A DNA stretch of 63,779 nt, the filler included, from Hausera hauseri (lineage: Eukaryota): assembly GCA_046269625.1 (NCBI GenBank). It is 11 parts of 11 records of this genome, joined end to end, with 100 filler letters (N's around TTAATTAATTAA, not from the genome) between each part and the next. Parts side by side here need not be neighbours in the genome. Positions count along the whole stretch, not along the records: positions 40,503 to 44,612 come from JBJURY010755431.1; positions 44,713 to 49,809 come from JBJURY010336715.1; 9 more parts are not named here. One strand, given 5' to 3'. The translations under genes were made by a program, and so were the position numbers. The notes under the pieces are model-generated. The model was not told the DNA's origin. It did no database searches and saw nothing but the letters and a program-made list of their open reading frames with translations. How positions within the stretch are numbered: position 1 is the stretch's first letter; each line of letters opens with the position of its first letter. Of the stretch, positions 1-63,437 are shown one piece after another.

Positions 1-2
1 AA

Positions 3-16323: not shown

Positions 16324-16325
16324 AA

Positions 16326-18959: not shown

Positions 18960-19099
18960 TTTACTTACCAATCTGAAATAAAAGTAAATAAGATTATTCC
19001 TAAGACAGATTCGTATTTCGAATTGAAATATTTGCACTTTCTAATGACAGAATAACCAGATGTGTAGTTGTCAGGTTATTTTATCATATAAATCACTTT

Positions 19100-35281: not shown

Positions 35282-36280
35282 TATTAGCACTGATGACGAT
35301 GTATCCGGTTAAATATTTGATTAGTTCAATTCGTACATCCTCTTCATCTTCAGCTTGCAGGATTATAGAGAGAGATAATCCGTGTATATGCTCGTTTGTG
35401 TTTGATATCTTTCTTCTGGTCTTTTGTAAAATATTGGTTCTTCTAAGCTGGCATTTTCATCTATGTGTTGGCAAATTTCTACTCCCATAACTACAGGAGT
35501 TAGTAATATCTTGAAATAGATTTCTGTTTGGAATGCTGGATATTTGATCCTTAGTGACATTTTCGGTTCCAAAATGGAATTTTGAGGGTAAAGAGCATCA
35601 TAACAATCGGATTGTGCTCGAAATTGTATTACGCCACGAGCTAAATGTATTAAAACTTTTTCAAAAGGTGGTTGTAGGTGTAATAGCTCTTTTAAATTGA
35701 TATTGTAACGTGCTTCTTCTATTTTTAAGATTCGGAACATTCTATCGTTAATCGTTGAACTTTTTAGATCATTATCAATATATTTGCTGTCTGTATACAG
35801 GACATCCGTTGAATTTTCTGTTTGTTTGATCAATTGGGCATAAAATTTTGATGGATACAAGTTTTTTGAAATGTCGAATATTAAAATGGATTTGCCATAC
35901 AATTCTTGCCAGGATCTATTTTGCAATCGATATTTTTCGCTATCTTGTAAATTTTCTAAAATTTGGGACTGTAATTTCAATTTCTTATTTTCTGGTAAAT
36001 CATCAATATTGATCGCCTTCTTTCTTACTTCTTGTAATGGCTTCGTTGTTCTTATTTCAGTAAATGAGGCTGTATTGCACAAGATTCCTCTTGTTAATCC
36101 AAATCTCTGAGTTGGATTTTGAAACGTGAAGGTGTTTGTAAATTGTTTTGTAGGTAGTATAACCCTTCTCTTAGGGTTAGGGACTACCGTTTCAGTGGAA
36201 TTATCTGAATCGTTATCAGATCCGTCCAAGTCAATATCTGTTTCTTCTGACTGGTTCTCTGCTATTTGAAAATGATTCAT
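35282..36280 (-). pseudogene. Accessory ORF of a divergent subfamily of the complex gypsy (305 open codons, then a DEDDh-like segment in a shifted frame)
   Basis: LKELLHLQPPFEKVLIHLARGVIQFR aligns with LRNLLRFELGHHNDVYIHLAEGEVYYR (ORF 18384-19037). The shifted frame reads RRKISNTNEHIHGLSLSIILQAEDEEDVRIELIKYLTGYIVISAN. Confidence 0.65.
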
Positions 36281-36289
36281 TTTGCTGAA

Positions 36290-37020
36290 AAAGGAAATAA
36301 TAATGTAGCGGGTCATATTTAAGGGCCCGTTAAAGGGGTAGGTGGTTACCCCACTATGTTTTTTCATTGGTGTAATTGTGTTATTAAGGTACTGCAAATC
36401 TATTGGTTGAGATTTGCTTTCATCTTTTGCTGTGTGTGTTAGCGCTATTGTTTTATAGTGTGTGTGTAATTTTGTATATTTATGTTTTAGATCAATTTTT
36501 TCATATTCCTCAACGTCGACTATCCACTCCACACTTACTAAGTAAATTAGGTTAGTTGACAGTAACAAGGTCTTATTCATGATAGTTCTTTTTCTAGAAT
36601 ATCTTTTTAACTCCATTATTACAAAGGGTGTGGATATGGACAGTAAAAGAAATATTATTATTATGGACGGTACCAGGATTTTTAACATATTAGTTTGGAT
36701 GCTAGAACTAGTAGTTAATCGCGTTGGTGTATAAACTAGAAATTCTTTATGTAGTAAATACTTTTTGGTTCTCGTTTGAGTTCTAGTTGTTTGTGTCGTG
36801 TTTTTGCATAATTTTGGGTGAAAACAATCAAATATTCATCATCAGGTTGGAGGTCATTACATCTGGTCATTCGTTCGTACTCTTTTATGATGGCGTATAT
36901 ACTATGATATTTTCCTACACAAGTTATGGATATTGGATCTTTTACTAATTGTAAGGTTTTAAACTCAATATATAAATCTGAGGGACTGACAATTACTTCA
37001 GGTATTTTGTGCATGTCCGA
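36290..37020 (-). pseudogene. C-terminal part of the FN3-like type I membrane protein (ectodomain, S/T stalk, TM, basic tail)
   Basis: PISITC...TRCNDLQPDDEYLIVF; TTSSSIQTNMLKILVPSIIIIFLLLSISTPFVIMELKRYSRKR. Confidence 0.58.
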
Positions 37021-37249
37021 TTGGTATTTTAAAATGGTTTACACTTAGGTTCAGCAACAATTACATATCATTATCAGGATAAATGTAATTAATTTTGTAT
37101 TTTTTGGAAGCCTGTACGAAATCCAAACTATAGGTCAATTTAATTTTATTACACTAAGACGTTCTACTTATGATCAATAACAATAAAAATTGGCCCCATA
37201 TTACAAGGTCTAAATGTATGGCAATTACTTAAATTTCATACAGTTCTGA

Positions 37250-37530
37250 GAAATACTATCTATAAATCATGGTCGGCCATATTTTCATATAATCGAAGTC
37301 AAAATAAAAGTTTGGAAGGACTTCCATCAGAATATAGTATAAATGTATTCATGGTTAATTGAAAGGAGATAAAAAACCATAATCTCGTGTTGGTGAATAT
37401 GTAAGAATTTCTAAAAGTAGAATTACACTAACTGAAAAGTTCGATATCAATTTGAGTGATAAATTGGTTAGGATCAGCACGGTAAATAATATATAAATGA
37501 GAGTCTTTTAAGGGATTGTTGACGAAGCAG
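37250..37530 (+). pseudogene. Maverick integrase C-terminal remnant
   Basis: SYNRSQNKSLEGLPSE and RVGEYVRISKSRITLTEKFDINLSDKLVRI. Confidence 0.55.
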
Positions 37531-37533
37531 AGG

Positions 37534-37695
37534 AGTAAGTAAATAGGAGTGCATGAAATCAGACCCCCCCAGGGAAGGAAAATGGGTGTGGTTTGGAGAT
37601 GAGTCATGGGGTAGAAAAAATGATACACACATACACGTTTAATAGAGCGGAGATAGGAGGCACACAGTGAGAAAGTGTATACACACAAGCATGTG
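37534..37695 (+). repeat. Maverick-type terminus, family 2 (AGTA(A)GTA...), homologous to the reverse complement of 49910-50051
   Basis: Shared GATGAGTCATGGGGTAGAAAAAA.GATACACACA..CACG.TTAATAG.GCGGAGATAGGAG.CACACAGT.AGAA. Confidence 0.68.
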
Positions 37696-38246
37696 AAAAT
37701 GATCATCATTCTCCAAAATCAGCAAATTAACTACAGAACCATTCGGATTTTTTGTACGATACAAAATGTCAACGAATGGATTTTTTACTATGTCCTCATC
37801 AAAATCCACATCATCTTCCTCATTAATCAAAAAAACATTAATTGACAACTGTGGATTCTGTCTCTCAAATTTGCCTGTTACATATTTTCATCGGCATATC
37901 ATCCAATGAATATTTTAGTTCACTTAAGAAAGGAGTGTAATAGCTTACTCTATTTCTATTCCTGAGTTTCAAATTCAGAATATTTGATTACAGCCAAAAT
38001 AGAGTACAGAAAGCAGAAGTTGTCTTCATTCTGGACGTTAACAACGGCCATTGCATTTTTTAAAGTGTCAAGTGTTGGAATATAAGACTTACCAGACAAG
38101 TAGGGTAGTGGGCTTGTTTTTACCACGTGAAAGCAGTTTTTCAGAATCTTAACTATTTTCCACCCACTACCCATTTCAGCAAAATTCTCAATTTTCTCCT
38201 GTAAACTATCGACTGCAGATTGTGGAAAAGATTGTTCATAAGGCAC
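37696..38246 (-). pseudogene. N-terminal region of a Maverick protein-primed PolB, truncated at the terminal repeat
   Basis: FAEMGSGW, GKSYIPT, AVVNVQNEDNFCFLYSILA, FERQNPQLSINVF, VNLLILENDDHFH. Confidence 0.8.
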
Positions 38247-38249
38247 GGT

Positions 38250-38440
38250 TCGATGAGAAATATTCCTCAGTATACCATATTATCCTCATATAACCCCTAA
38301 TAATTCCTCATCATCTTGGTATATTCCCTATATAATCCTTATTATTTTGGTATATTCCCTCTCATATATTCCCTCAGTATTCCTCATATATCCCCTCTTA
38401 ATTCCTCATAATCATATATTCCCTCACTAGTTCCCTCTAA
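38250..38440. repeat. Low-complexity (TATTCCTCA-like) repeat
   Basis: Repeated TATTCC(C)TC / ATCCTC motifs. Confidence 0.6.
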
Positions 38441-38599
38441 TGGTTGTGTAAACTGTTGTCAACACGATGCATTGTCAGCATTTTTGTTTTAATGCATCAA
38501 TTACATGCACATATTTTGATTAATTAAAAGTCAATGTAAAAGTATGAATCTATGATTATGTGTTGTTAACATACTATATTTTTGTTTTAATGCATCAAT

Positions 38600-40402
38600 T
38601 ACATAAATTTCTCCGCGCCAAATTAAAAATTTCATCAAGGTTTTCATATATGGGAAATCTCGTCAGATTCTTTGAATAATGCACACTTGATCGATAATTA
38701 TTCGATTTTCTAATAATTTATTCGAATATCAGACATCAGATTCAGATTTTCCATATATGGTTTCCTATCTGTTTACGCTTAAAGATTTATGGATTCTTGC
38801 ACCTTTCACCTTGAAAATTAAGTTAATTTATGTGCACACACACATACTTGTGAATTTCTCAGTGTTATTTTACTAGGTAAAGATTCATTGAACAAGGTCC
38901 ATTTTATTTTTGAAAAAGTTTCAGCAGATGTAGAATCAAATAAAATTATCAGACTCTTCGAATAATGCATGCTTGATCGAATATTTGAGTTCGAATCGAT
39001 AATTATTCGAAATTGAATAATTTTTTCGATCATCGGATATCAGATTCAGATTCTCCGTATATGCTTTCCTATCCATCTGCGCGTAAAGATTTACTAATTT
39101 CAATGTGCTTTACCTTCAAAATCACCTTTTAAAATGTATAAATTAATTAAAACAAAACAAGCTACGTTTAATTTATTTATTGCATAAGTTAAACATTTTT
39201 GACAAAACCTTGTTTTATTCGACAATGGTGTACTGCACCGCGTCAATTTCGATTACCTTATAGGTTTTCGCATATGGGGAATCGAATGCCGTCATTAGAT
39301 TCTTCGAATGTTGTATTCTTGATCGAGTTTTGGAGTTTGAATAGCTATTTATTCAAGTATGAATAATGTTTTTGATCATATAATATCAGATTCGCATTCT
39401 ACACATATGCTTTCCTATCCATGTACGCTTAACGATTTACCGATTTCACCGTGCTTCACCTTCAAAATCAACTCAATTGCTTAATCAATATAAGAATGAC
39501 TTTGCATTTAACAAGAACTTTTAGCATATTTGAAAAACTTTGTTTTTATATACCAAAAATGCACTGAACCGCACTAATCTTGATTGCCATATAAATTTTC
39601 GACCATGTGAATTTGAATGCCGTCATTAGATTCCTCGAATAATGCATTCTTGACTGAGTTTTCGAGTTCGAATAGCCAAGTATTCGACTTGTAAGCTCGA
39701 TTTCGAATATCTCGTGTCATATTCCCAATCGACATACATGACTTCCTATCCAGCCCCGCTATTAGATTTATCGATTTTCGCTTTACTGCGCTTTAAATGC
39801 ACATTTTGCTTATTACGAAATATTGATTTTATGCCTACATAGTACATTTTCATTGCATATTTTTTTGCACCTGGGGGTTTTCCAATATGAGGAATCGACT
39901 CCCGCTGTTAAATTTTTCGAATAGTTCGAACTTCAATATTCGAGTTCGAAAATCTTTGAATTTCGAGTTTTCGAGTACAGATTTGAGTTCGCCATGGGCG
40001 ATTTTCTATCTGTGCTCGCTCAATGTTAGATCGAATTTTGCTTCCCTAGGCTTAAAAAACATCAAAAATATAGCCAATTTGCACTTTCTATCGATATTAA
40101 TCAATAACTAATCAATAAATTTAAATTCTTACTGCACACTCATATACTACATCATGTTTCCTTCCGATTGCACCCGGTCCATAGTTCTAATCATCTATAT
40201 TGGAAATATCGGAAATTCGATATTATTGATTTTTGCACACTTGCACACATGTTTTGCACTGCACCCCACATATCAAGGTCCATCTCGATGTGCCATATCC
40301 ACCTGCAATTGACTCCGATCAATTCCATCATCGTTACGCTGCACAATGACCAAAATATGAAAAGTGAAAAAGTGCCCTGACAACCGTATCCAAGTGCACA
40401 CC
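38600..40402 (+). repeat. Third copy of the ~300-bp tandem-repeat non-coding element (compare 10525-13812)
   Basis: Same units (TCATTAGATTCTTCGAATAATGC, TTTCCTATC...GATTTA.CGATTT) near 38649, 38930, 39274, 39604, 39887. Confidence 0.75.
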
Positions 40403-40569
40403 NNNNNNNNNNNNNNNNNNNNNNNNNNNNNNNNNNNNNNNNNNNNTTAATTAATTAANNNNNNNNNNNNNNNNNNNNNNNNNNNNNNNNNNNNNNNNNN
40501 NNGAGTATTACAGCAAACAAAAGATTAAAGAAGCAATGCTTTTTGTCAAACTAATGCCTGCCTGACAAG

Positions 40570-41303
40570 TTTATGAGAATACTTATGTCTGGGAAAATCC
40601 TAATATGGAAAAATACGTTGCCCCGATATTTCAGTTCAAAAGAAACGGTAAAATCTTAGTCCATGTGGATAAGTCAGTCAAGCTGTTGCTAAAGAAACAG
40701 TACCAAAAATACAAATCGACGGGTGAAGTTCCCCATTTAGATCGAGATACTATCAGCGATTGGACCCTAATAGCTGTGGGATGCGACCCTAAGAAAAGCT
40801 CGATAAATCCAAAGCAGAAAAGAATATACGCTTACTTATATCATGATGGAGAAGGGTTAATAATGGAGCCTATTGAGATTTTGCTGAGAGTGGATCTTGA
40901 TGACAAAAATTGGGCGAAAGAGGAGAAAGAATGCCCCGTATGTGAGGCGAACCTGAAGCAAGGATATGTAGTGTTAAACAACCCGGATTCTCGACATAAA
41001 TATTGCAGAGACTGCTTAGAAAAATGGACAATAGATAACGGATAAAGCACATGTCCAGTATGTCGAGCTGAAGCTGCAGACCTAAAGTACTACTTGAACG
41101 GTAGTTATACTAAAATAGTTAGGATCAAACCCTACCACAGTTATGAATTGGAGCCGAATCCCAGAGAAAGCCAACCTAGTACCAGTTCGAGACCCAGTCT
41201 GAGACAACGAATGGAATTATTACGAAGGCCCCGTCATCGCGGCACCTCACCTGACGCAATTGACACATTCGAGGATGCCGTTAAGGGAGGAGAAATGTCG
41301 TAA
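40570..41303 (+). pseudogene. C-terminal half of the gypsy accessory ORF with RING-HC finger, ending inside the PPT/LTR
   Basis: WTLIAVGCDPKKSSINP (matches 17323-17589); CPVCEANLKQGYVVLNNPDSRHKYCRDCLEKWTIDNG*STCPVCRAE; ...TSPDAIDTFEDAVKGGEMS*. Confidence 0.8.
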
Positions 41304-42085
41304 ATAGTCTCAAATAGAGTTGTATAAAGTCACGAATAGCGTCAATAGAATCTGTATAAATATTTAATCAGCAATGTAGTGAATTATGTACGGTTACAAT
41401 TATAAAGATAGAAGAAATTGTACATTATTGATGAGAATTCGAAATTTGTATTGTATTGATTCAAGTTAACAAAGAAGAGAAAATGAATTATTTAGTAAAC
41501 TAATTTTTTAGTAAACTACTTTTTTAGTAAACTAATTTTTTAGTAAACTAATTTTTACTGAAACGTAAAACAACTAAATAGAAAATGATGTCAGATGAAT
41601 AAATGATGACAACTGAAAGTATAAAAGGGAGAGTTTGATAAATGAGAAGAGATTTTTTTGAAGTTTTCCAGCGACTATAGTGAAGCTAATTGAAACCGCA
41701 AAATCATTCGAAGAGTATCATTGAGATAGACATTTGATTACATTGACATTGTGATACGCTCGATATTGTACTAGAGAAGCGGTAATTGTTTATTTGAATA
41801 TATTTTGTTTGTGTAAATTCTTTATAGTTTCCTTCACCCCTTAAGGGTGATTAGACATCAATAAGATTAAAATCAGTACTTAAAATAAATAGTTAATAGA
41901 GAGACATTATTAAATTTTATTGCAAAGGACCGCAAGCATTATCCAGCAAAGAAATTTATAAAATCGATAAGGTACATTCAGTCTATCCGATAACGGTAGA
42001 CCGAGCCACATAGCAAATAAACTTCAAGTGAAATTTACTGTTATATAGTGGGAGACGAATAGGGGCCACCCCAATATATATAACA
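41296..42085 (+). repeat. LTR (TGTCG...TAACA) preceded by PPT AAGGGAGGAGAAA (41283-41295); contains 4 x ~16-bp TTTAGTAAACTA repeat (41491-41556)
   Basis: PPT-TG start and CA-PBS end. Confidence 0.88.
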
Positions 42086-42087
42086 TT

Positions 42088-42105
42088 TGGCGACCCTAGC
42101 AGGAC
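42088..42105 (+). promoter_or_regulatory. Primer-binding site complementary to a tRNA 3' end (Arg type)
   Basis: TGGCGACCCTAGCAGGAC; resembles the TGGCGACC tRNA-Arg PBS of 412/mdg1-type elements. Confidence 0.8.
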
Positions 42106-42464
42106 AGTCTGTACCTTGCTAGACTTTACTTATCAGAGTTAATTAATTACATATCGGCAAACAGCGCCATTCACATCAATTAATTAGATATTTGGAAAAT
42201 AAAATCGATTTGGGATAAATAATTCAGAAATTGTTTGAGAACAAACATTGATAAGTCGAAAATAAATCATATATTAAAAGACAATTCACCTATACGTGAG
42301 ACACGTCGTAATATATATATAGAGATACAGAAAAAGTAGATAAACGTTTAAATTCCGAGAATAGAATTAAACTAGACGTTGTCGCGCACAATAAACAGTT
42401 TAAAATTCCGCTTTAGAAACCTAAAATAACTAAAGCTAATTTAGAGCTAAATAATATAAATAAA

Positions 42465-44612
42465 ATGGCAGCAGACAATCCACTAATAGCGCAGAAGCTA
42501 GACATTTTCACGTTCGACTCTCTAAACCTGCCGAAATATGACGGAGACACAGATGGGCTTAATGAATTCTTGAGGACTTATAAATTGCACGAAAAAGTGC
42601 TAGCCTCACTCCTGAAGTAATGATTAAACGATTGTCGTTATATTTGAAAAACTTAGCCACTGGTGCTTATAGTGAGCTCACAAACGATGAGAAGAAATTT
42701 TGTTCCTCCCTGGTAAGAGCGATAAATCGCAAACTGTTGCCAACCGTAACGCCGCAACAAAAGTTTATGGCATTTCAGGACCGAGTACAGCAAAAGGGTG
42801 AATCAGTAACCCAATTCGCATTTGCGTTGAAGAAGTTTGCTAATAGTTATATTAGTACATTGAAGATCGCCAACGTAGCTAAAGCTAAAACAGATGCAGA
42901 ACGTGACGTCGCAGAGAAGGCCTCACCACCAGATTTAGATGTTATGATGACGACGCAACAAATAAATCGTATTTGGTCGCGAGACGTAGTTAAACAATTG
43001 ATTTTGGCTAGACCTAAAAATTTTGAAGGAACGTTACGACTAGCTCAAGATTTAGAAATGGTGCTAAATAGATACGCCAGACAACGATAGAAACGACAGG
43101 AATAATGATCGAAATGACCGGAATGATAGAAATCGTAATGCTAATCGTAGAAGAGACGACAGACGATTTTCGGGTAACAGAAATTATGGAAATAGAAATA
43201 ATAATGGCGGTTACAGAAATGGCAGAGGTAGTAATTATACAAATACGAACAGATCAGACTCTAACTGGAATAGGAATAGAGGAAATTATAAAGGCTCAAA
43301 CTACTCGAATCAAAACGGTGATAACCGGAATAACGATAATAGGCGAAATGCCGACAATGCGCAAAGTTTGCCAAACCAGTATAATAAGGGTATAAATAGA
43401 TCTAAGTCACCAGTGAACGAAGACGGTCGACAGAGAGTCGGCAGAAATGGGAATTTGGTTTGTTTTACTTGCGGTAAAGAAGGACACATTTCAAGGTCAT
43501 GTCCAAATCCGCGTAGCTTTTCATTTAGTGAACCAAATAAGACTAATATGATTAGAATCCATGAGAATCTAGAAGCAAAGTATGTCGTTCGCGGAGACAC
43601 AAGCACTACCGTTGATATAGAAGATTTGCGAAAATTCCTAGATGCTCAGCCGGATACCACTAACTTACAAATTCTGATGGCTAGAAAAGAATTACGGAGA
43701 TAAGTTGAGACTTCTAGAAGTATATCACGGTTTAGCCGAACCAGAAACGGAATATAAACGGGCAATAGCACCTCAACGAAGTGATATGACACGGAAAAAG
43801 GGTGTTCTGACGAGTAATAAGCCATGTGATAAACCAAGCACATCGACGGCAGTCGACTTAGACGTAGAACGTAAGTTTACAGTCGAAAAAGTAGCTACGC
43901 TTACTGAGGACGATGCAGCAGAAAAAGAGTTTATGGAGCCACTATTACTTAAAATTACGAAAAATTGAGGCCGTAGCCCTTCTCTAAAAACGAAACGAAG
44001 AAATTGTTCACGCTCCAAAATAACTAGAGAGAAAATTGAAAAAACAGAAAACCCAAACGTCGTTGTAGGAGGCGACACAGACCATAATTTGAATATATCA
44101 GAGATTGGTTCATTCACACCTGTCGGAACAGCGGAGTCTATAGAGTCGATTAACGAAATTAACGAAATTTGCCCACTTTCCATTAGTGTAGAAGAAACAA
44201 CGAATATTGACAATTTCGATCTTAAGAAGTGAAAAGTCCGACATTCATGGAAAAACGCCAATGAATTAAGGAAACTGAGAAATAAACGCGATGGACAGGA
44301 AATATTACAGTGTGACTTAGAAAGGCTTCAACAGATTTGCGAACAAGTAAACATATCCGGAAAAGAACAACAATTCGCAGAGAAATTATATAAAAGTTTG
44401 AAACTGCGTAGCAAAGGAAAGTTTGCGGAAGCAATTGATATAGAACAACCCGAAGAGGTACCGACCAAAAGGTTGTTAAAGTGGAAACAGGAATTATAAT
44501 CATAAATTAAAAGCGGAATAGAATTTTTAGAAGGATGGAATAAAAATGAAGACAGAGTCGACGTAAAAGTCACTAAAGCTCAGACATTACTATCTACTTT
44601 AGAAGCAAACCC
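42465..44612 (+). pseudogene. gag: gag (capsid, N/R/G-rich linker, CCHC knuckle) plus a >1.1-kb coding-like extension without protease
   Basis: MAADNP..LPKYDGD; RVQQKGESVTQFAFALKK; CFTCGKEGHISRSC (43461-43502); then an acidic, low-complexity reading frame up to the spacer. Confidence 0.85.
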
Positions 44613-44713
44613 NNNNNNNNNNNNNNNNNNNNNNNNNNNNNNNNNNNNNNNNNNNNTTAATTAATTAANNNNNNNNNNNNNNNNNNNNNNNNNNNNNNNN
44701 NNNNNNNNNNNNA

Positions 44714-45438
44714 GGAGAAGTCCTATTAACTTATGAATGCGAAAAAAGAGACGTTCCGATCAACGTAGAAAAAAAAGATGCATGTAAAAATTTCGGGTCA
44801 CTTATGAGAATATTCCGAGACTAGCGATGCCGCTCACCAGAGTATTATTGGCAAACTCAGCCGAATGAACAATACTTAAGGAATGCAAAACAAGCCTACG
44901 TGAACCTATGCTCCGACGTAGCGGAACCGATTGGATACGTTTACCTAATGGAAGCACTGCTGCAGTCCCTAGTAAGCTAACTGGAACAAATCTAATCAAA
45001 GGATTATCAAAAGACAAGTTCGAGGACACGGCCAATAAAGGAATTTATAAACCAAAAGACATAGAAACTTTTAGGCAATTCTTAGTATTTCCGCGACAAA
45101 GAACTTATGAACTGAATCGGGCCATGTCAATGGTCATGGACGACACCCGCTTTCAAGCAAAATGGAAATCGATACTGGGTGTTAATCACTATCAAAGAGT
45201 AACTTCAGAAATATTGTATAAGATTTGGAGAAGATTTCTAATTTTCGGACAAGCTGCATCTGGATTCCTAGCTATCTACTTTTTAGTCCAATTAATTAAA
45301 TCAGTAAATCAAGCCGTTATAAACGGATATAAAATATTCACATTAACAGGATTTTCCTGCAAAATTTGGACTGCAATTATCACACCCTTTGGAAAAATAC
45401 TTAAGGCCTACGAAGAAAATCGGTGGAAAGTGACGTAG
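44714..45438 (+). pseudogene. C-terminal third of a chuvirus-like (class III) envelope glycoprotein, located upstream of pol
   Basis: GEVLLTYECEKRDVPINVE..CM*KFRVTYEN....PLTRVL...C....P......W..LP......P..L...GIYKPKDI...FLVFP...IWRRFLIFGQAASGFLAIYFLVQLIK....INGYKIFTLTGFSCKIWTAI. This follows my recalled chuvirus G pattern; not run against a database. Confidence 0.72.
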
Positions 45439-45977
45439 AACGCCACGTCGGATACTATAATCGCAAACGACGAGTGAGGCCCTCGATTCTGTATAAACGT
45501 AAAGACAAGAAAACAATAACATGAAAGGATGATTCAGATGATGACGAGCCTAAGTGGGGAGAAGCGAATTCCAGAATAAAGATGCGCAAGATGTACTCAC
45601 TGATTAACGCCCCATTACCCATCATACCACCAACCGCACCAGTATACGAAGACTGCGACCGAAAATAGGTTATGTCATACAAGTCTAAAATATACCGTAA
45701 GCCCATCGATTATGAAGATTCTTATGAAAGAACGAAACAATATCGAGTTCTACGGAAAATGAACGTTATTGACCAAGGAATAACAAAAAGCGACCACGGA
45801 ATATTATACTCGAAAAGAATACCTCATCACATAGAGTCGGAATCAACCATCTGGGAGAACCCGAAACTGTGTTTGATTCTGGGACCACTGCCTCAAAAAC
45901 TGCTCATCGACAGTCGTGTCAATAAAATGGCGAATAATAATTTATACCCGAGCGGAAATTTAAGACAATTAATATAA

Positions 45978-48900
45978 AATATTGTTTCAACGATAAACGG
46001 ACACCGAGTCTCTACTATAAAACAGTCAAAGATAGCGTCAAAATGCCTCGGGACAGTAGCAGAAGGAAGACCTTTTGCAAAGTATACATTGAAGACTGGG
46101 AAGTATATGCCTTAATCGACACAGGATCAGAAAAGTCGTTTATAAAATAAGAATTAATACTAACCACACTGCAGAACCAATTATGCTCACGATTATCATC
46201 GGACACTGGTAGCATAGAAGCATTTGGACAAATGTCGAAGCCGAAATTTAAGTGGACTCCTACCGTTTATATGATGGGCCAAGAACTTCAACACGAATTT
46301 ACGATAATGGACCAGTTAACAGACGATGTAGTATTGGGTTACGACATATTGAAACAGATACCAGGCATGGCAATCGATGTGCATAATGGAAAATTACTCG
46401 AACTCGGACCAGTTAAAGGAACAAAGATAATAAAGAAAAGGAAACCGGGCGAAGTATAGATCCCGGTAGACGAAGACATTCCGCCCAGAACCGAAAGGAT
46501 AATTTTTGCACGGATGCGTCGAGACGAAGATCTGCCCGTATATTTTAAACTTTAAGAGAATATCAATCCAAAACTCATGTTTAGCAATATCCTATGTAGA
46601 GTAGCCACGGGACGTATACCTATCAGATTAGTGAACAATGCAACAACCCCCGTAAAATTGTAAACTAACATTACTTTAAATCACACTTGCAGAGTATCGT
46701 CAGTAACAATAGAAGAAAAACCATACAAGTGCGCTGAATTTCCACCTCACGTCAAAACCAAATTCTCTCCAGAGGCGTATTCAAGTTCTACGAATTACTA
46801 TGTAAATACCGTTCAATAATCGCACAAAACGAAGAAGACATAGGTAGAGCAAAAGCCCTGAGATTAAGAATTACACTAAGGAAAAAACCCGGATCGAATG
46901 ACGAAATCGATCTAGAAGAACAGAAAATTTCCAAATGGTACCCACCTCCCCATTCATTGAGACCAGAAATAACTAAAGATTAAAACGACTGTTAAAGGCC
47001 GATATAAATAAACCATGCTACCGATCATGGTACTCACCTATACTTATTGTTAAAAAGAAAGGAACCACGAAACATCGATTTTGTATAGATTATTTGGCAT
47101 TAAACACGCTTGTGATGAAAGATTCGTTTCTCATACCATCGGTAAAGGAAGCTTTTGATGGACTATCAGGACTGAAATGGTTTACCACTCTCAACTTACA
47201 ATCGGGATATTGGCAAGTGGAAATCGAAGAAGAAGGTCGATATAAAGCACCGTTTAAAACACATGATGACGTATACGAATTTAATATCATGCCTTTCGGC
47301 ATCACCACAGGATCAGCTATTTTTACTAGAATGATGAATAAGATGCTCATGGGGCTTGATTATGCTTTCGCATATTTAGACGACGTAATGATAGCATCAA
47401 AATATAGGACGAACACTTAAAGGACATTGACGATACACTCGTGCGACTGGAACAAGCAGGGTTGAAATTAAATCCAAAGAAATGCAAATGGGCGCAGAAC
47501 GCAATATCGTACCTCGGACATATAGTTGGAGAAGGACGATGAAAACCGGATAAATCCCTGCTAAATCAAATATCTCATTGTATGGAACTGCAGAATCAAA
47601 AAGAGTTAAGATATTGGTTAGGTCTATGTAGGTATTATGCCACTTACGTGCCAGACAATTCGAAAATTAACGCACCACTATACCGCCTACTGAAAAAAGG
47701 AACTAAATGGAGATGGACGGCAGTGGAACAAGAAGAATTCGGCGAAAATGAAGAAAATTTTGACAAGCGAAACAGTTCTAAGATACCCTGATTTTATCCT
47801 ACCATTCATCATTAAAACAGATGCAAGTAAAGAAGGTATAGGATACGAATTAGCTGAGAAACAAGAAGATGAAGAACTAGAGCATCCAATAGCCTATGGA
47901 AGACGCTCGTTAAACAAAGCAGAAAAGAATTATTCGGTTACCGAATTAAAAACGCTAGCCGTAAAGGAAGCACTATGACACTTTAATGTCTATGTCTATG
48001 GACAAAAGATTATAATAGTGACCGATCACAAAGCAGTTACGACATTGAAAGGACAAGTTTATAACTCAACATGTAGATTAAACCGTTGGATCGAGGAGAT
48101 CTCACTATATAACATTGAATTCCAATACAAACCATGTAATAAACACGTCGACGCTGACGCGCTGTCAAGGTTAAGAACAAAAACCAGTGGGATTACCACG
48201 ATGAAGAAAACGCAACTCGAACAAATAATTGAACTTCAAAGGACGCTAACCTTGGATAAAACGATCAAGATCACAATAGAGCATGCTAAAGATAAGGTTA
48301 TTCAGCAAATTATTGAGTTCGCTCAAAATGACAAAATACCCAAAGGACGGCAACTGAAGAAGCATCTACAGAAACACGGACATAAATATCGCGCATCGAA
48401 CCAAGATAATATCCTATATTACGAACGAAAAGGGAGAAAACTAATAGTCATTCCAAAAGGATTACGCATCAAAGTACTCATGGCTGAACACGATTCATAT
48501 TTAGCCGGACACATGTCTTGGAAAAAGACAATGGAAAGCATATTAAATAAATACTATTGGCCAGACATTTATATCGATGTAAAGAATTGGGTAGGTGCTT
48601 GCGAAGTTTTTGCGACCAAACAAAAGAAAATGAAAGGCTACGTAGCAGAATTAAAACCCATAAGTGTACCAGATAGGCCTATGCAAGCTATGTCTATGGA
48701 TGTAGTGGGACCCTTGCCTAAAACTCATAAAAATAACAGATATATTCTAACATGCGTGGATCGATTAACGCATTACGTCAAATTGGTGGCATTATTAGAT
48801 TAAAAGGCAGAAACTTTAGCAGACTCAGTGGTAAGGAAAATTATCTGCAGATACGGACCACTAGAATAAATCTTGACGGATAGAGGGAAGAACTTCACGA

Positions 48901-49560
48901 GCGAATTATTTGAAAAAATTACCAAGATAGTCTAAATCGAACGTTTAACCACTACCGCATACCAACCTCAATGTAACGAAATTGTCGAACGAATGAACTC
49001 AACAGTTATTCGTTTAATATCAACAGTAGTGGCAAAAGACCAAAAGGATTGGGACGAATTCCTAGAAGGGACACAGTTCGCAATCAATACGACACCACAT
49101 CCAGCAACGGGATTTACACCGTTCTTTATGATGTATGGACCAGAGGCAATCTTACCCACAGATCTAGATATGACACCGTACGAAAAGGACCTCGAGGATC
49201 TCGAGCAAAACTTTGCCGCAGTGTTACAGACAAGATTGCAAAAGTGTTGGGAAGTTGCAAAAGCATTATCACTCGAATACCAGGAACAATATAGAAACAA
49301 TATGATAAAAAGACTAAGCCCCATGATCTGGAAAAAGGACACTGGGTTTATATACATTACCCAGTCGCGACGAAAGGTGCATCCTTGAAACTAACCGGTA
49401 CCGGAAGAGGACCATATGAAATCGTTCGCATAACGTCAACCACGGTCTATATTAACAAAAACGGTAAAAGGAAAGTCGTATCATTTCAAAGAGTAGTTAA
49501 AACAGATACAAGATCAGCTAAACGCTACAATTTAAGACAACGAGAAGCCAAGACCTCGTC
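45978..49560 (+). pseudogene. pol: pol of the complex gypsy (PR-RT-RNase H-IN)
   Basis: YALIDTGS; LGYDIL; LQSGYWQV, MPFGI, AYLDDV; KTDASKEGIG, NYSVTEL, TDHKA, HVDADALSR; EHDSYLAGH..C, SMDVVGPLP, TDRGKNF, GPYEI. Confidence 0.93.
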
Positions 49561-49809
49561 GATTGCTATCAGACCGGTATCTTACGCACATATAATTGTA
49601 GCCTTATCGTTGATTGCTGTCCTAACGCCTAAATCTAACGCCCAATGGTGGGTTGATGAAACTTCGTTGAGCGATATATATGGAATAAAAAAAATCTGGA
49701 TAAAATTTTCACTACCAAAAAGGTAACTCCCTAACACAAATCAGAACACAAAGACGAAAGGTTTTTACGAGCAATAAAATTAGATTATTTTTCACTAGAA
49801 GACCCATGT
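49561..49809 (+). pseudogene. Signal-peptide start of the integrase-fused membrane protein
   Basis: RYNLRQREAKTSSIAIRPVSYAHIIVALSLIAVLTPKSNAQWWVDETSLSDIYG, in frame with the integrase. Confidence 0.7.
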
Positions 49810-49909: not shown

Positions 49910-50051
49910 TTTCTGACTGTGTGTCTCCTATCTCCGCCCTATTAATCGTGCGTGTGTGTATCGTTTTTTCTACCCCATGACTCATCCGCGAACCAAAAAA
50001 AATTTTCTTCCCCGGGGGGGGGTTGGCGTCATGTGCTCACATTCTACTACT
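49910..50051 (-). repeat. Maverick-type terminus, family 2 (ends ATTCTACTACT, i.e. 5'-AGTAGTAG)
   Basis: Reverse complement of 37534-37675. Confidence 0.7.
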
Positions 50052-50139
50052 TTTAATGTCACTAAAATTATTTCGGTACACTTTTTTTAATAATAAATGT
50101 CAGACTGATAAAGTGAACGATTAGGCACATAACGTAACC

Positions 50140-50563
50140 AGTCACGTGACACACGTGGCGCGTGCGCGTAACCCGTGATGCGTGGGATGGCGGCTCTGTG
50201 CTAGAAATCCTGATTTATTTCGCCTACTTTTCCTCCTCCTCCTCCTCATCCTCTTTGACCGACGACTTTCCCACTTTTCCAAAACATGCGAACCCCATGT
50301 TTCCCATATCATTCGAATGCCCATACTCTACTCTACACTTTCTCCTATCCATTTCTGCTCATATTTTGCTTCTGGAAAAAGTTCGTTTTTTGCTTTTGCA
50401 TTTCCCGGCTTTGTGTTTTGCGACACACCAAAACCGACCTCACCATTCAACTCGCCGTTGTCCAATTGACCAATCAGCATGCGAGCGTTACATGCTTGGT
50501 CAATTGGTGAGTGGGTGGCCCCCGCCCCCGTTCTTGTTCCAGTCTCATCTTTTTTCCCCTACT
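50140..50563 (-). repeat. Maverick-type terminus, family 3 (ends TTTTCCCCTACT), with an internal hairpin at 50462-50507
   Basis: Shares CCCATAT.ATTCGAA.GCCC and CACCATTCAA.TCGCC....AATTGACCA with the reverse complement of 54181-54780. Confidence 0.55.
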
Positions 50564-50799
50564 TGTATACTTGTATTATACTATCTGACTGTGGTTTTAG
50601 TAAGTTACATTTTGCCTGATAACTATTTTTAAATAGTGTCACAATTTTGTTATTATACCACGTTCGGCAGCTTATTTGAATGTCATAATTTACTTTTTCT
50701 TTCATGGAAAACACAATTTTATACTGCTGGATCAAATACTTAATGGGTATACTTTCTAAATCTTTTCAGATGTTTTCTCAGAAATGGCAGCTTCCGTGA

Positions 50800-53700
50800 C
50801 AGTACTCATTTAAATAGTTGGTTTTCTCGTTGTTGCCTCAATTTTCCATACCGATCTTCCGGATAATATCTTCCAGAGAAAATATTTAATTTATTAGGTC
50901 GGAGTTTATAAAGGTCGAAATATATTTTATACTCATGACCTATCGGTATTTTACAACATGGATTCGGTATTGTGGACCCAATGCCACAATATTCTGGTAA
51001 TGGGGCTAATTTATTTAATTCGTTAAATCGAATTGAGATTGTCCGTTAACATTCCTTTCGTTTTGATCTAACATTCGTTTTTGTGGAACAGTTGATTTTT
51101 TTTTAATTGAATTTTACTTTGAAACGTCGATCAATCGAAGGTATAATTATTTGAGATTGTGGGTTCACTTCGGCATAGACCTCATTTGAATTTGGGAAAT
51201 ACAAATGGCAAGTGAGAATATGAGTATCCGTAGTTTACGTCACAATATTTTGTGTAATTACCTGGTTTGGAATCACAACTGATTATCGCTTTCCTCGTTT
51301 TATTAGGTAGTGTTATCTGAAATCTTCAAAAATTGCGGTATTGTTTTGTGTTCTTAATCCAACACACATAGATTGGGAAGTAAACTAGTAGGCCGTCATC
51401 GTTTGTAATAACTTGGTGTCTAGTTTCATGATTTCTTCAGCGGTCAATTTCTTTTCCTTTATTACTGTTTCTTGTTTTAATCCGCTTTTACGAATTCTAT
51501 AAACATCTTCTAAAGTAGTTTCATCGTCCTGCCACTGGACCTTAGTTTTCGGTATGTTCGAAGCAATTAATGACAATGGTAATATTATGTGCACGTGAGA
51601 TATTTGTCTGGGTATTATATTAGACCCTTTTGCTTCTCTTTTGTTACTATTCTGATGTTCGTTCTTCGATCGCAAATTATAACGTTTATTCGGTTTTCTT
51701 TCCGTTTTGACAACTTGAATTGACAGAACTCCTTCTTAACCATCTGTATTAATATAAACTGTAGTAGATGTCGTTCTGATAATCTCGTATTGTCCTCTTC
51801 GGGAACGAATCATCTTTAAAGATGTGCCTTTCCTGGATACTGGGTAGTGCACGTATACCCAATTTCCCTGTTCCAAATTTTATGGTTTCGCTTTCTTATC
51901 ATACTGCTTGTTAAATTGTTCTTGATATTCTTGAGATAATTCTTTAGAAATTTTCCAACATTCTGTACCCGAGAAATTTTGTTCCAAATCTTCGGGATTA
52001 ATTGTATATATGGCATCATTCATAAATCTGTCGGTAATATGGCTTCTATTCTATACATAATTAAAAATGGTGTGAATCTGGTTGTGGGGTATGGTGTCGT
52101 ATTAATAGCAAATTGAGTTCCTTCTAAGAATTCATCCCGATATTTTTGGTCTTTTGCGACTACTGTTCACAGAATACGTATAACAGTTGCGTTCAAACGT
52201 TCCACCATTCTGTTACATTGGGGATGGTATGTGGTCGTAGTTAATCGTTAGATTTCGAATATTTTGATAATTTTGTTAAATAGTTCGCTCGTGAAGTTTC
52301 TTCCTCGATCCGTCAAGTTCTTATCAGGAGGTCCGTACCTTCAGATAACTTTTCTTTCTACGGCTTCAGCTACAGTATCGGTCTTTTGGTAGACTAGTGC
52401 TATTAACTCCATGAAGTGAGTTAGCCGATCAATACAGGTCAGAATATATTTGTTATTTCTGTGGATTATAGGCAGCATTCCTACAATATCATTGACATAG
52501 CTTGCATGGGCCTATCTAGTACGTTTATTTGTTTTAATTCCGCTATGTAATTTTTCACTTTTCGCTGTTTGGATGTGCATACTTCATAAGTGCGTACCCA
52601 GTTTTTCACATCGATGTAAATACTTGACTCAGAATATTTATTGATTATTTTTAATAGTATCTTCTACGAGGACATAAATCCAGCTAAGTACAATCGTGTT
52701 CGGCCATTAAAACCTCTGTTCGCAATCCCTTTGGAATGACTGTTAATTTTTGTCCTTTACACTTATAGTGTAAAATATTTTCGTGAACCTTATCACTCGA
52801 AACACAGTATTTATGTCCATGTCTCTGTAAATGTTTCCATAGCTGGTGTCATATTAGTATTACATCCTTTTCTAAAATTATATAATCTGCTTGGTGACTC
52901 TATCCTTCTTCTCTTCTATCAAAATTATAGTTGCTTTATCCCATGTTAAGGTGCGTTGTTTGTCTACTAACTCTTCGGGTTGAGTTTCTTTCATTATAGT
53001 GATAGCATTCGTTTTAGTTTTTAACCTCGATAAGGCGTCAGTATCTACGTGTTTACTTACAGACTTATACTGAAATTCGATGTCATCACGAGATTTATTC
53101 AATCCATCGGTTGAGTCTACATGTCGGATTATTCGCTCTGCCCTTTAACGTCGTGACGGCTTTATAGTCAGTAACAATTATGACTTTCTGTCCATAAACA
53201 TAGTCGTTAAAATGTCGTAACACTTCCTTTACCCCTAATGTTTCTAATTCTGTAACTGAATAATTTTTCTCGGCCTTCTTTAATGAACGTCCTCCATATG
53301 GGATCGGGTGCTGTATCTCTTTATTATCTCGTTTCTGAGATAATTCGTATTCGATGCATTCTTTACTGGCCTCGATTTTCATTATAACTGGTAGATTAAA
53401 ATCGGAATATCTTAAGACTGGTTCGCTCGTTCAAATTTTTTTCATTTCGTCGAAAGCTTTTCGTTCGACGTCAGTCCACTTCCACTTAATTCCTTTCTTA
53501 AGCAAGCGATATAACGATGCATTTATTTTCGAGTTACCTGGAACATACATGACATTGTACCCACACAAATTTAACCAATGTCTTAATTCTATTTTTGAGG
53601 CTCAATATCATCTGATATTTTATTCAACAATGATTTATCTGGTCTTGATCTTCCTTCTCCGACTACATAAGATACTGCATTTTAAGCCCATTTACATTTC

Positions 53701-54180
53701 TTATAGTTTAGTTAAAATCCTGCTTGCTCTAATCGCATGAGTATATCTTCAATATCCTTTAAGTTCTCTTCTTCCGTTCGCGATGCTATCTTTACATCGT
53801 CTAAGTAAGTGAGCACATTATCCAATTTCATTAACATTTTATTCACCAATTTTGTGAAAATAACCGGTCCAGTTTTGATACCGAACGGCATGATATTAAA
53901 TACGTACACGCCATCGTGCGTTTTGAACGCCGTTCTACAACGGTCTTCGTCTTCCATTTTTACCTGCCAGTATCGGGATTGTAAATCCAAAGTGGTAAGC
54001 CATTTTGTTCCTGAGAGTTTGTCTTAAGCTTCCTTTACGGATGGCAGTGGGAAAGAGTCTTTCATCATGAGAGTGTTCAGTGCTCTATAATTGATATAAA
54101 ATGGATGTTTTGTAGCACCCTTCTTTTTAACGATAAGTATCGGCGAATATCAAGATCGGTAACTTGGCCTAATATATCTT
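50800..54180 (-). pseudogene. pol: Further copy of the complex gypsy pol (RT-RH-IN) plus fused signal peptide/ectodomain
   Basis: SPILIVKKKG, DLQSRYWQV, TYLDDV, NYSVTELE, HVDTDALSR; RYNLRSK...RQISHVHIILPLSLIASNIPKTKVQWQDDETTLEDVY. Confidence 0.9.
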
Positions 54181-54780
54181 ATTAGGTAGATATGCTGGAT
54201 CTCGGCCATGGGGAGAAGAAACACTGAAAATGGAAAAGTTGCTGCTGGACAATGAGTGGTTTCTGGTCAATTCAAGTATGGCGAATTGAATGGTGTACAT
54301 CGTGAAGCCATGTAATCCTAGGAGAAGTCAGGAAATGCAAAAGTATGGGATTGATTTCTTCGGAAGCAAATTAGAACAGTAATAGATGGAATGATTTGTT
54401 GTTTGGATGACGGGCGTTCGAATAATATGGGATAATGGGAGTTGGCATAAATACCCCAAGCGGGATAATCAATCAAAAAGTGGCCCAGATTTAGCATTGG
54501 TCTGTGGGACAGAAGTGAAAGTTGATCAATCCAATCAGTGATGGTTTCCGAATGCCGGGGTTCTTATGAGCCCAACGGCGAAGTTAGAACGAATGAAAAA
54601 TACATTGTGGTAGAACGAGAACAGTTTAAAGAAAAACCAGAAATGTTGAGCAATATGCAGGAAATTGGTATAGGTTGATGCAGAATATCGGGATGAATGC
54701 ATGGACGAAAATAAAACCAAAGAGAAGCCGAGAAATGCACAAGAAAGTATGACAAAAAAGTGACTTTTCGATATGCGTCA
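54181..54780 (+). repeat. Maverick-type terminus, family 3 (ATTAGGTAG, degenerate AGTAGGTAG), interrupting the gypsy RT
   Basis: RT homology stops at 54180; the sequence beyond is homologous to 50140-50563. Confidence 0.55.
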
Positions 54781-57199
54781 AACGTAACGAATTACGAGTA
54801 ATTCGTAATTCGCAACAAGTTGTAAATATTAAAAATATCTATTTTTCGTTTTACAAATAGCTAAAACGACAGATAATTCGTTATTTGAACAATTTAAACT
54901 AAAGTTTTTTATGGACAGATAAAACTTCAAAATNNNNNNNNNNNNNNNNNNNNNNNNNNNNNNNNNNNNNNNNNNNNTTAATTAATTAANNNNNNNNNNN
55001 NNNNNNNNNNNNNNNNNNNNNNNNNNNNNNNNNCACCGAAGGACCAGCGTCCTATACATTCGTACTTCCCACGAACTACAACCGCCGAAATTTCGTGTAT
55101 AAATTGTATTAATAAATATTGTTTATAGAAATTGGATTTGTATAAATAAATATTGTTATGGTATTAGATTTAGTTTTAAAAGGTACTAAATTATATCCTA
55201 AAACAAATTACGATTGCATTACGAACTGGTATCTGCAGTCGATTGACCGTAATGGTGAATTCACGATTAACGATATACCGAAAGAAAATCGTCATATCAC
55301 TTGAAGTAATGCAAAAGAAAATATGCTGTCAATGTAGGTTAGCGAGATGCCCGAATTGCGGATATGACTGATATGACCGATTTGATCGTAGAAATAGGAC
55401 AGGGATAATTACGTTAACTGATTTAGTCCGGTAAGTATACCAATAAGACACTCCGTTAAAGAGTATTGGCTGGGATAATAGTGTCCGGATACTGAGATGA
55501 ATAGTATTCCACTTGATGACATTTAAACCGTCAATATATAGTAATTCGACTTGTGAATCTTATACCAATTATGAGGACTGGAGTACTAAATTATTCAGAA
55601 CGGTAACATTTAGAATAGTAGGTAAGTGTACGAGATGTTATTGCGGATACAAGGCACATTTAAATCAGAGTGATAATGAAGTATATATCGGTCCACCCCT
55701 GATACTGACTGAAATGATTACAGGTAAATATCGAGTCTAATGTTTGGTTATGAGATCAGTTTGCGCCTTGTGGTCTCTCAGCATCATTTTATTCATCTAA
55801 GATTTATAAACATGGTGATTTAACAACATTTGCAAATAAATATTAAGTATAGTATAGAAATGGATATCACGTATTGATCTACTTTTAGCCGATTTTAGAT
55901 CTAATTGTGACGAGGTAAATATGCATATTAGTCGGTTTTAATTATTCTCAATTGGGTAAATGTTGACCGGCTTCAGATATTAATGTGTGGATAAAACAAA
56001 TTTTCGTCCATGCGCATGTGTAGTGAATTCAATATTATAGTCGATATGTGTTTCGGGAACTTCTTGGGATATTTGATATAATAGAATAACTATTGAATTG
56101 TCCCGAAATTTTTGGAATAATCCGGCATCAAGTTAAGTATTAATCTAATTGGGGAGCTCACAACATTGTCTAAAACCGGACCTGTGATGACTACCTGTGA
56201 AATTGATGGATTATTCACGCTAGTTAAAAATGGTAATTCCAGGAAGAAGCCATTTGGTATAGCCCGATAGAGAAATGGTCACGAATAAACTGAAAGGATC
56301 AGGACCTTGAACTAATAAATATATACATATATATTTGTAAACAGATTTTGGTGTGTTTATATCGAATCTGACATTAAATGGGATTAATGGCGATACATTA
56401 AAGATTCCCCCTAAACAAATACCGTCCATGATAGCATGAATCGGCTGTCCAAGACGTCGTCTTGAATGGAGTCTAAATTGATTACGAATGAGTATCGTTA
56501 CAATATGGATTTATACGCACATCTCAGATGGTAAGTTGACCACCTCTGTGAAATTATATGCAAAACTTGGGAAGGTCGTCATCTGATGTTTATACTTACC
56601 ACGTGTAATTACCCATAACATAGTTTACCTGTCTTCTATCCTGATTAGGTCGAATAGTGTAAAATGAAATAACGTTCCACTTAGCTTCACTGACATGTTT
56701 TCGATCGAATGCTCACACCAGTCGCCCCTAGCCAAAGAGAAAGTCACTTTTCAAACTCAGAACATCTGCATAACAATTCTACGTGAATCGCCTAAAGGGT
56801 GCAGACAATGTCATATTGTCGAACCACCATCGAACTCTTACGCCTTCGGACTAACCTCTTTAGATACATAAGGATTTGATTTATATGTTGGGTTGTTCAC
56901 GACGGATTATTAGCTTAGATACAAGTTCAACCTGAACCAGTCTATTTACTCGGTGACCCTTCATTGACAACGTATGCCAGGGAATGAATTTGGACCATGA
57001 AATTAGTCGGCCTGAAAGTATCACATATATCCATTTTACATAATTTCTTGATTACGTAATTATTATCATCATTTTGAAAACATTCAATCTCAATTAAAAA
57101 GCACAGACATTTGAAACCATAAAATTTATTGAAGTACACACAACATTTATACCAATACAACAAACATCATGTTTACAAGTTGTATTGTTCAATTAACGA

Positions 57200-57510
57200 A
57201 CCTATTCAATAGTTTCCACAAATTAGACAATGGATTTTGTTACTGTATTGAGTTATATTTCACTAACCGGGGAATTCGATCCACCGTTGTCACAAGCTTT
57301 GGTTGATAGAACACACCAAGTGGGTCGAAAACACGAATTACATTCGGTCGGATGCAGATAGCAAGCCAATGTTTGTCGGATAGATTTCTTTTGTGTGAAT
57401 TAATGACGTATGCTCCAACGTATAAGTAATCGGGAATCCGTTCGATTGAATAGACGTCTTTAAACTGATCACTCAAGTGTTGTTTCAAAGCCGTTTCAAT
57501 CTGAAATGTT
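57200..57510 (-). pseudogene. Maverick cysteine protease, second copy
   Basis: FKDVYS, YVINSH...KHWLAI, VFDPLG, NSIQ*QNPLSN + CGNY (shifted frame). Confidence 0.85.
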
Positions 57511-57593
57511 CAAAATAAATAAATATAGTAATGTACATGTAAAAAATAGAAAACTACTTCATGTCCATGCACTTCACGTACTTTGATCCTTGT

Positions 57594-63260: not shown

Positions 63261-63437
63261 GCTAATATGTGTAATATGCTGATAATATAGATTGGGTAAT
63301 ATAAGAACAATTTAGGTTAAATACAAGATAGATCATTTATATGAGATATATCTGTAATTATTCAATAAATCAATACAATGCGCCAATACATTTATAAATA
63401 AAACTAAGACTTGTATTATTCTGTCATTATTTCAAAA

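Follow-up and report, generated by a model that had tools for sequence, protein, structure and literature searches.

Decayed copies of a Ty3/Gypsy retroelement family in Hausera hauseri, with a fusion glycoprotein upstream of pol and a predicted membrane protein and RING gene downstream of it

Five contigs in a stretch of 63,779 nucleotides (filler included; the window) from the genome of Hausera hauseri (assembly GCA_046269625.1) are, judged by their sequence, decayed genomic copies of one high-copy Ty3/Gypsy long terminal repeat (LTR) retrotransposon family with several subfamilies. With high probability, the implied order of the complete element is LTR-gag-G-pol-membrane protein-accessory gene-LTR, where G is a class III (chuvirus/gB-like) fusion glycoprotein. 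The gag-env-pol core is known, and the new part is the gene pair at the 3′ end, a second membrane protein and an accessory gene with a RING domain and a predicted pseudo-exonuclease.

Five contigs of one family and the implied gene order

The window consists of 11 contigs joined by N-spacer-N linkers, so that neighbouring parts of it are unlinked. Its content suggests an animal genome that is AT-rich and rich in repeats. We refer to the five contigs as C (15504-20834, minus strand), F (35282-40402, minus strand), G (40503-44612), H (44713-49809) and I (49910-54933, minus strand); contig G is distinct from glycoprotein G. Labels of the type P0001 denote the database proteins compared.

At the nucleotide level, contig C is 72% identical to contig H over the integrase (IN) tail, 70% to contig I and 70% to contig G (LTR end and gag), and contigs H and I are 70% identical over 2.5 kb. 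Contig F is a distant relative that was recognized by profile match (see below). All five pieces are thus related, with about 30% nucleotide divergence between the subfamilies of one family. Stops and frameshifts break every element copy in the window. When the contigs of run X1, possibly the source sample or close to it, were aligned to contigs H and C, 15,828 aligned on H (526 at 99% identity or more, 2,054 at 95-99%, 6,482 at 90-95% and 6,766 below 90%) and 7,312 on C, where depth is no copy number. Because they cover 30 of 30 bins in both H and C, we consider the family to be highly repeated and to include G and both 3′ genes. The test for intact, recently multiplied copies was negative in the window: the copies are decayed, and 526 of the 15,828 X1 contigs are at least 99% alike. 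An intact accessory open reading frame (ORF) exists outside the window (P0001). A short interspersed repeat, found at 37556-37674 and 49910-50028 with 85% identity, adjoins two truncated element copies.

The LTR could be delimited in two subfamilies. On the plus strand of contig G, a polypurine tract (PPT, 41283-41295) is followed by a 790 bp LTR (41296-42085) with TG...CA ends and no codon periodicity, and then by a primer-binding site (PBS, 42088-42105), likely for tRNA-Arg according to a matching 8-nt tRNA terminus. In supplementary file 1 of the gB-type errantivirus survey (PMC13524379), the tRNA ends with this terminus are all Arg (30 of the 32 places shown). The homologous LTR of contig C lies on the minus strand (16306-17058), with the same PPT motif at 17056, the LTR from 17045 to about 16326 with an N10 gap inside, and the PBS at 16323. 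No tRNA genes were found in the window.

Downstream of the PBS, contig G carries a frameshifted gag (42465-43700, plus strand) with a capsid, an Asn/Arg-rich region and a CCHC knuckle (43458-43508; zf-CCHC, E 4.6e-6). The 5′ part of gag in contig C (15504-15995, minus strand) has 80-83% amino acid identity to it and matches Retrotrans_gag at E 0.0086, below the Pfam cut-off. After gag, a coding-like extension follows on the plus strand (43678-44610; one frame has 4 stops, the others 27 and 29), for which no Pfam match was found. In total, contig G continues for 1,107 nt (369 codons) past the gag knuckle, and no protease motif occurs there; knuckle and protease are 38-147 aa apart in those 9 of 123 comparison proteins that show both motifs. 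Contig H presents the other side of this interval, namely glycoprotein G, a coding-like linker (45405-46040, plus strand; one frame has 3 stops, the others 14 and 17) and the protease (PR), with no gag between them.

Both LTRs seen (2 of 2) sit between a PPT and a PBS, unlike those of a lone provirus. This setting implies either head-to-tail copies that share an LTR or two LTRs that were collapsed in the assembly; tandems with a shared LTR are common for LTR elements, according to part of one source (PMC5932611). Under either reading, the 3′ genes and gag would share one LTR type. One could go further and regard the PPT-LTR-PBS arrangement as a by-product of collapse or tandem formation, with the gag of contigs C and G belonging to a different internal region than the G-pol of contig H. 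The short-read style of the assembly, the N10 gap within the LTR of contig C, the unusual setting of both LTRs and the frequency of shared-LTR tandems (PMC5932611, in part) would fit such an artefact. However, collapse or recombination requires the same LTR on both sides, which leaves gag and the 3′ genes in one family, and the junction is found again in a second subfamily, with parallel divergence, so that we consider this explanation very improbable.

Direct linkage on contigs exists for G-pol-signal peptide (H) and for IN-membrane ORF-accessory ORF-PPT-LTR (C), and the pieces of the element sum to at least 13,471 nt. The preliminary description of this stretch had already related the five contigs by homology, as several subfamilies of an element longer than 13 kb, and these claims hold, as does the presence of LTRs. 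It had taken 15504-20834 to link the IN end, membrane protein, accessory ORF, LTR and gag, which is borne out by matches to H, I and contig G. Its reading of 40503-44612 as RING-PPT-LTR-PBS-gag agrees with the Pfam matches for RING and zf-CCHC, the TG...CA LTR and the PBS at 42088. For 44713-49809, read as G-PR-RT-RH-IN-signal peptide (RT, reverse transcriptase; RH, RNase H), the Pfam order and an in-frame hydrophobic stretch concur. The stretches 50800-54180 and 35282-37020 are indeed further diverged copies, the former with 70% nucleotide identity and the latter as a distant relative according to hhalign and tblastn. From the proposed order LTR-gag-G-pol-FN3/TM-Exo/RING-LTR (TM, transmembrane segment), the order itself stands; the FN3 assignment is weak and the catalytic residues of the exonuclease are lost.

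Glycoprotein G and pol

Contig H begins with the C-terminal part of the class III fusion glycoprotein (44713-45480, plus strand), with a hydropathy-predicted TM near 45241-45297. The match to PF24664 (Monjiviricetes fusion glycoprotein) extends over about 44764-45477, corresponding to profile positions 391-623 of 653, with E 4.5e-24; about 390 N-terminal profile positions lie outside the window. A gB/class III env is therefore found directly upstream of pol on one contig, PF24664 being followed by PR. There was no longer homologue of the G fragment among 482 candidates and no phage match to it was found; WD40 rows obtained with the fragment were rejected as summed repeat noise.

The pol region (46079-49560, plus strand) has the Ty3/Gypsy order, with PR at 46079-46357, RT at 47049-47527, RNase H at 47736-48110, the IN zinc finger at 48450-48617, the IN core at 48672-48968 and the IN tail behind it. 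RVT_1, RNase H, the IN zinc finger and rve are matched by Pfam, and the aspartyl protease match (E 0.003) is below the cut-off. Stops and frameshifts occur throughout, and identity to Gypsy pol proteins is 30-46%. In addition to the domain order, a TG...CA LTR with PBS and PPT is present in two subfamilies, and all matches listed for pol carry Gypsy-type domains. A third copy, on contig I (50537-54172, minus strand), was annotated by homology to H and C and by Pfam; it comprises RT, RNase H, IN, the signal peptide and the ectodomain and is cut off before the TM.

Among the matches listed, PF24664 occurs in the precomputed annotation of 2 of 120 pol relatives, P0006 and the Meloidogyne protein P0059. 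Our own profile scan confirmed PF24664 in P0006, fused upstream of PR-RT-IN; for P0059 it gave only E 0.01, so that this case is unconfirmed. The G fragment of contig H does not align with the env of either protein. In the integrase tree (119 matches plus contig H, computed by a quick method and without an outgroup), H is on a long branch and the placement around it is not resolved. The long branch, together with the failure of the G fragment to align, may point to a separate capture of env by the Hausera element. A metagenome scan with P0006 gave 2 loci; related loci were not found in viral contigs.

Some further features were noted in or near pol-type sequences. A segment between PR and RT (46459-46700) has no Pfam match and weak blastp similarity to the same region of P0008, P0028 and P0031; we take it to resemble the dUTPase-like insert known from Burro and rotifer elements. 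P0012 is a gag-pol protein of 2,439 aa with a chromodomain, after which a stretch similar to rhabdovirus G (E 0.0018), together with a TM, forms an env-like 3′ fusion. A different, simpler Gypsy gag-pol is present at 25519-35181 as a tandem pair with 84% identity over 4.3 kb, with no envelope gene in view.

The gene pair downstream of integrase

A signal peptide predicted from hydropathy and the start of the second membrane protein lie at 49568-49700 on the plus strand of contig H. This internal signal peptide continues the reading frame of the IN tail, an arrangement conserved in H, C and I. In contig C, the IN tail and signal peptide (20241-20834, minus strand; 72% nucleotide and 66% amino acid identity to H) lead into a broken type-I membrane ORF of about 400 codons (19160-20400, minus strand; homologous to contig I). 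It comprises an ectodomain with cysteines, which are present in each ectodomain piece, a Thr-rich stalk and a strong TM near 19166-19222 (KD19 2.81). On the stretch from the TM to the splice acceptor (18886-19241), far more X1 sequence was aligned than on the flanking coding parts, hinting at a cis-element that is conserved across subfamilies; no unusual RNA structure was found there (z -0.41).

The accessory gene is represented in contig C by a broken copy (17041-18959, minus strand) with an N-domain, a DEDDh-like pseudo-exonuclease, a pre-RING domain and a RING. Its 3′ part is found again on the plus strand of contig G (40503-41303), with the pre-RING domain, a C3HC4 RING (40929-41066) and a tail that ends just inside the LTR; this part has 45% identity to residues 610-869 of P0001 (E 9e-61). 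With HMMER, 1.84 billion representatives yielded three matches, P0001, P0002 and P0003, the last of which was rejected as a repeat-driven false match. The ORF of P0001 (870 aa, E 3.5e-64; source contig of 16,242 bp) is uninterrupted, spans all pieces from C and contig G, and ends in GGEML as contig C does, i.e. at the PPT. P0002 (333 aa, E 1e-44) is encoded on a 12,445-bp contig. A word search with P0001 returned only P0001 itself.

P0001 is composed of an N-domain (about 150-170 aa), a domain similar to DnaQ, a long linker that in contig C is about 200 aa shorter, the pre-RING domain and the C3HC4 RING. The zinc-ligand pattern of the RING is present (PF00097, E 2.6e-7 in P0001 and 9.1e-5 in the window), and DEDDh-type similarity is seen to DnaQ (E 1.3e-4) and PolC (E 4.4e-4). 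In P0001, however, the D and E of ExoI are replaced by A and N and the D of ExoII by M, within an aligned stretch that excludes ExoIII. P0002 carries the same A and N at ExoI. The loss of catalytic acids is therefore not due to decay, as it is shared by intact relatives. An active exonuclease was rejected on account of the three replaced acids, and we predict a pseudo-nuclease. The earlier designation as an exonuclease-RING gene is correct for the RING and the DEDDh-type fold, not for catalysis. The AlphaFold model of P0001 is poor (pLDDT 39); fold searches with it in PDB and BFVD gave many 2OG-Fe(II)/AlkB/cupin rows at very low TM-score, with the aligned range not given. This is a lead towards a 2OG-Fe(II)/AlkB-like fold of the beta-rich N-domain, for which profile searches gave no sequence support and the Atlas no usable match.

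Just upstream of the accessory ATG (18959), contig C has a predicted splice acceptor (18963-18995, minus strand) that consists of a pyrimidine tract and an AG, with a donor-like GTAAGT 4 nt beyond it. The matching site of contig F at 36538 shows a branch-point-like motif, a tract, and an AG that overlaps GTAAGT. P0002 reads the same residues as C at this site, and K, E, Q, M and W are all absent from its 20 residues upstream of it (chance about 0.004 in one post hoc test). Such a bias is consistent with a TM-coding stretch that, as in C, is read off frame. We think it rather probable that the accessory protein is made from a spliced subgenomic RNA.

Contig F (35366-37038, minus strand) carries an ectodomain-like ORF, taken to be the last ectodomain domain, a TM, the acceptor site and, further downstream, the accessory N-domain (about 35465-35878). 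By blastp, 35282-37038 has no match to the other four contigs, and 35282-37020 had been set aside as unrelated on that ground. This was overturned, as the 490-aa ORF of F matches the accessory N-domain with an hhalign E of 1.8e-4 and a tblastn E of 4e-4 to 9e-4, scoring above 100 of 100 shuffles. By these comparisons, contig F represents a family that is more distant and shares the 3′ gene order. Between 35900 and 36700 the TM, the acceptor, about 220 extra codons and the accessory N-domain are in one open frame, unlike in C, and this family may use read-through or make a larger accessory protein.

Between subfamilies, the ratio of nonsynonymous to synonymous differences (pN/pS, with bootstrap intervals; one 13-codon piece was left out) is 0.14 for gag, 0.17-0.26 for pol and 0.29-0.35 for the IN tail with the signal. 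For the 3′ genes it is 0.51 for the ectodomain (131 codons), 0.52 for the pre-RING domain and 0.49 for the RING with its tail. All bootstrap intervals are below 1. In nucleotide-guided alignments, third-position identity is lowest in the genes and flat in the LTR and leader. These ratios indicate purifying selection on all genes compared, and that the 3′ genes were functional when the subfamilies diverged and that they evolve faster than the core. Glycoprotein G, with one copy in the window, is outside this comparison.

Possible mode of spread and relation to known systems

The best explanation for these data as a whole, to which we assign a probability of about 65%, is one family with the order given above that likely spread as an enveloped, errantivirus-like element. 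The LTR transcript would be primed by tRNA-Arg. The polyprotein would pass the membrane at G, return to the cytosol for PR-RT-RH-IN, and re-enter the membrane at the internal signal peptide, releasing a second type-I surface protein for which an FN3-like attachment or decoy role is predicted. The accessory protein would be translated from a spliced subgenomic RNA. Its inactive exonuclease fold would attach to nucleic acid or to RNA-silencing complexes, while its RING would bring in an E2 for the ubiquitination of a host defence factor. The analogy is to Vif, ICP0 and other viral E3 adaptors. For the topology of the polyprotein, the function of the second membrane protein and the action of the accessory protein against host defence, we argue from anatomy, and the last of these is put forward tentatively.

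Several points weigh against this explanation. No contig and no aligned X1 piece spans the gag-to-G interval or the whole element; because both LTRs lie in the PPT-LTR-PBS setting, the 5′/3′ arrangement was deduced by permutation, and the link from the 3′ genes to gag is through these junctions, not through a complete provirus. Contig H holds only about 190 nt past the signal peptide, so its own 3′ genes are outside it, and glycoprotein G is seen in this one copy only, its presence in the subfamilies C, G, I and F being presumed. In the selection comparison dS is near saturation. As to the accessory protein, Pfam finds no exonuclease in P0001, and the top RNase_T score of 0.89 in the Atlas is only a lead. 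The membrane protein has no Pfam or PDB profile match, FN3 included. For the last ectodomain domain of contig F, an AlphaFold model has seven strands at pLDDT 41, and the top Foldseek rows are FN3 with a TM-score of about 0.5 and E 0.37 or worse, so that an FN3-like fold is plausible on this model. The ectodomain of F scores no better than shuffles against the short piece from C (995 of 1000); against I, its score is reached by 7 of 1000.

The restriction of G to contig H could also mean that there are two related lineages, one with G before pol and the other with only the 3′ membrane protein, as an envelope substitute, and the accessory gene, the composite never having been one piece. The homology of I to H begins at RT, contig C begins at the IN tail, and the subfamilies are about 30% apart. 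Nevertheless, G occurs on contig H together with the in-frame signal peptide that C and I also have, contig G with its RING gene shows no protease after gag, and many related X1 contigs cover glycoprotein G. We regard two lineages as improbable.

A different objection concerns function. The element might be enveloped by descent and work only inside cells, with its 3′ genes serving RNA processing, particle trafficking or turnover of its own proteins. Rotifer LTR elements carry DEDDy and TM ORFs without a shown role (PMC5408684, in part), and neither a host target nor a particle has been shown for the Hausera element. Against this, the catalytic acids are lost in intact relatives, which argues against RNA trimming, and the signal peptide, ectodomain and TM were kept under selection, which points to a luminal or surface role. 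A purely intracellular element thus seems doubtful to us.

The single enveloped family can be read more boldly as an invertebrate Ty3/Gypsy lineage with its own complex-retrovirus organisation. It would combine a chuvirus-like fusogen, an FN3-type attachment protein or cytokine-receptor decoy cut from the Pol end, and a spliced AlkB-like and DEDDh dead-enzyme/RING gene acting as a Vif/ICP0-like destroyer of host RNA silencing, and would be intact in some genomes. We consider this extended version unlikely. Should the main explanation given above hold, the family would be an invertebrate retroelement that has two surface proteins and an accessory E3 ligase made by splicing, and would supply a specific candidate for a suppressor of host silencing that is encoded by a transposon. 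The intact natural homologue P0001 makes a biochemical test possible.

Some further sequences were noted in other parts of the window. Two related decayed regions (1-6737 and 55034-59717), with an rve integrase at 561-995 (E 8e-7), are presumably Polinton/adintovirus-like; capsid-, protease- and ATPase-like stretches were recognized by eye and have no Pfam match. At 59818-62606 and 63408-63779 we assume, again by eye and with no Pfam match, a decayed stretch like a protein-primed polymerase, followed by a RING ORF (E 1.2e-7) that is only weakly similar to the accessory RING (E 0.013). Two complex non-coding repeat families with internal duplications occur at 10741-13761, 38640-40399, 5484-5993, 9137-10255 and 58550-59668 (contigs A, B, F and J).

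Capture of a fusogen of this Pfam family by LTR elements has precedents. Chuvirus-glycoprotein BEL/Pao elements of mosquitoes were reportedly described by Dezordi in 2020. These elements, and arthropod Gypsy elements (PMC13524379, in part), differ from the Hausera element in retroelement superfamily or hosts, and may also differ in the position of the fusogen gene and in extra genes.

Similar in organisation are the GAG-ENV-POL Ty3/Gypsy elements whose ENV is of the HSV/gB type, from Nematoda, Bryozoa and Platyhelminthes (Chary & Hayashi, eLife 2026, PMC13524379, cited in part). They share with the Hausera element the Ty3/Gypsy pol, the class III fusogen upstream of PR, LTRs with a tRNA PBS and multiple copies. 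A second membrane protein and an exonuclease-RING gene go unmentioned in the part of that paper drawn on here, and "RING" and "exonuclease" have no occurrences in its main text. That survey sought gag, pol and env, not other ORF arrangements, and 3′ cargo of this kind would be missed by surveys confined to these genes.

The planarian Burro/GYPSM1 is a giant complex gag-env-pol Gypsy element with many accessory domains (PMC6431247, as are the following points, from part of that source). Common features, if the order implied for the Hausera element is taken, are an env in frame between gag and pol, a long insert after gag, ubiquitination-linked accessory domains and thousands of copies. Burro, however, exceeds 30 kb, and its MATH, BIR, BCL2, ankyrin and Ubi/SUMO cargo lies within the polyprotein or upstream of it rather than 3′ of IN; an IN-fused membrane protein or a pseudo-exonuclease-RING is not described in that part. 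Pfam found no Burro-type MATH, BIR, BCL2 or ankyrin domain in the 369 codons after gag on contig G. The bdelloid rotifer LTR elements Vesta and Juno have a 3′ accessory ORF with a DnaQ-like exonuclease fold, and TM-bearing ORF3s occur in sister families (PMC5408684, in part). In contrast to the accessory protein described here, the catalytic residues of the DEDDy ORF3 are intact, RING has no occurrences in the part of the source used, and env is paramyxovirus F-like.

The 3′ pair of a second membrane protein and a RING accessory gene was not found described in the literature searched, most subscription journals and Repbase being outside that search. For the core, novelty is not supported, since an env between gag and pol is published (PMC13524379) and Burro is already complex (PMC6431247), as far as the parts of both sources cited here go. 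It is the gene pair 3′ of IN that distinguishes the Hausera element from these known systems.

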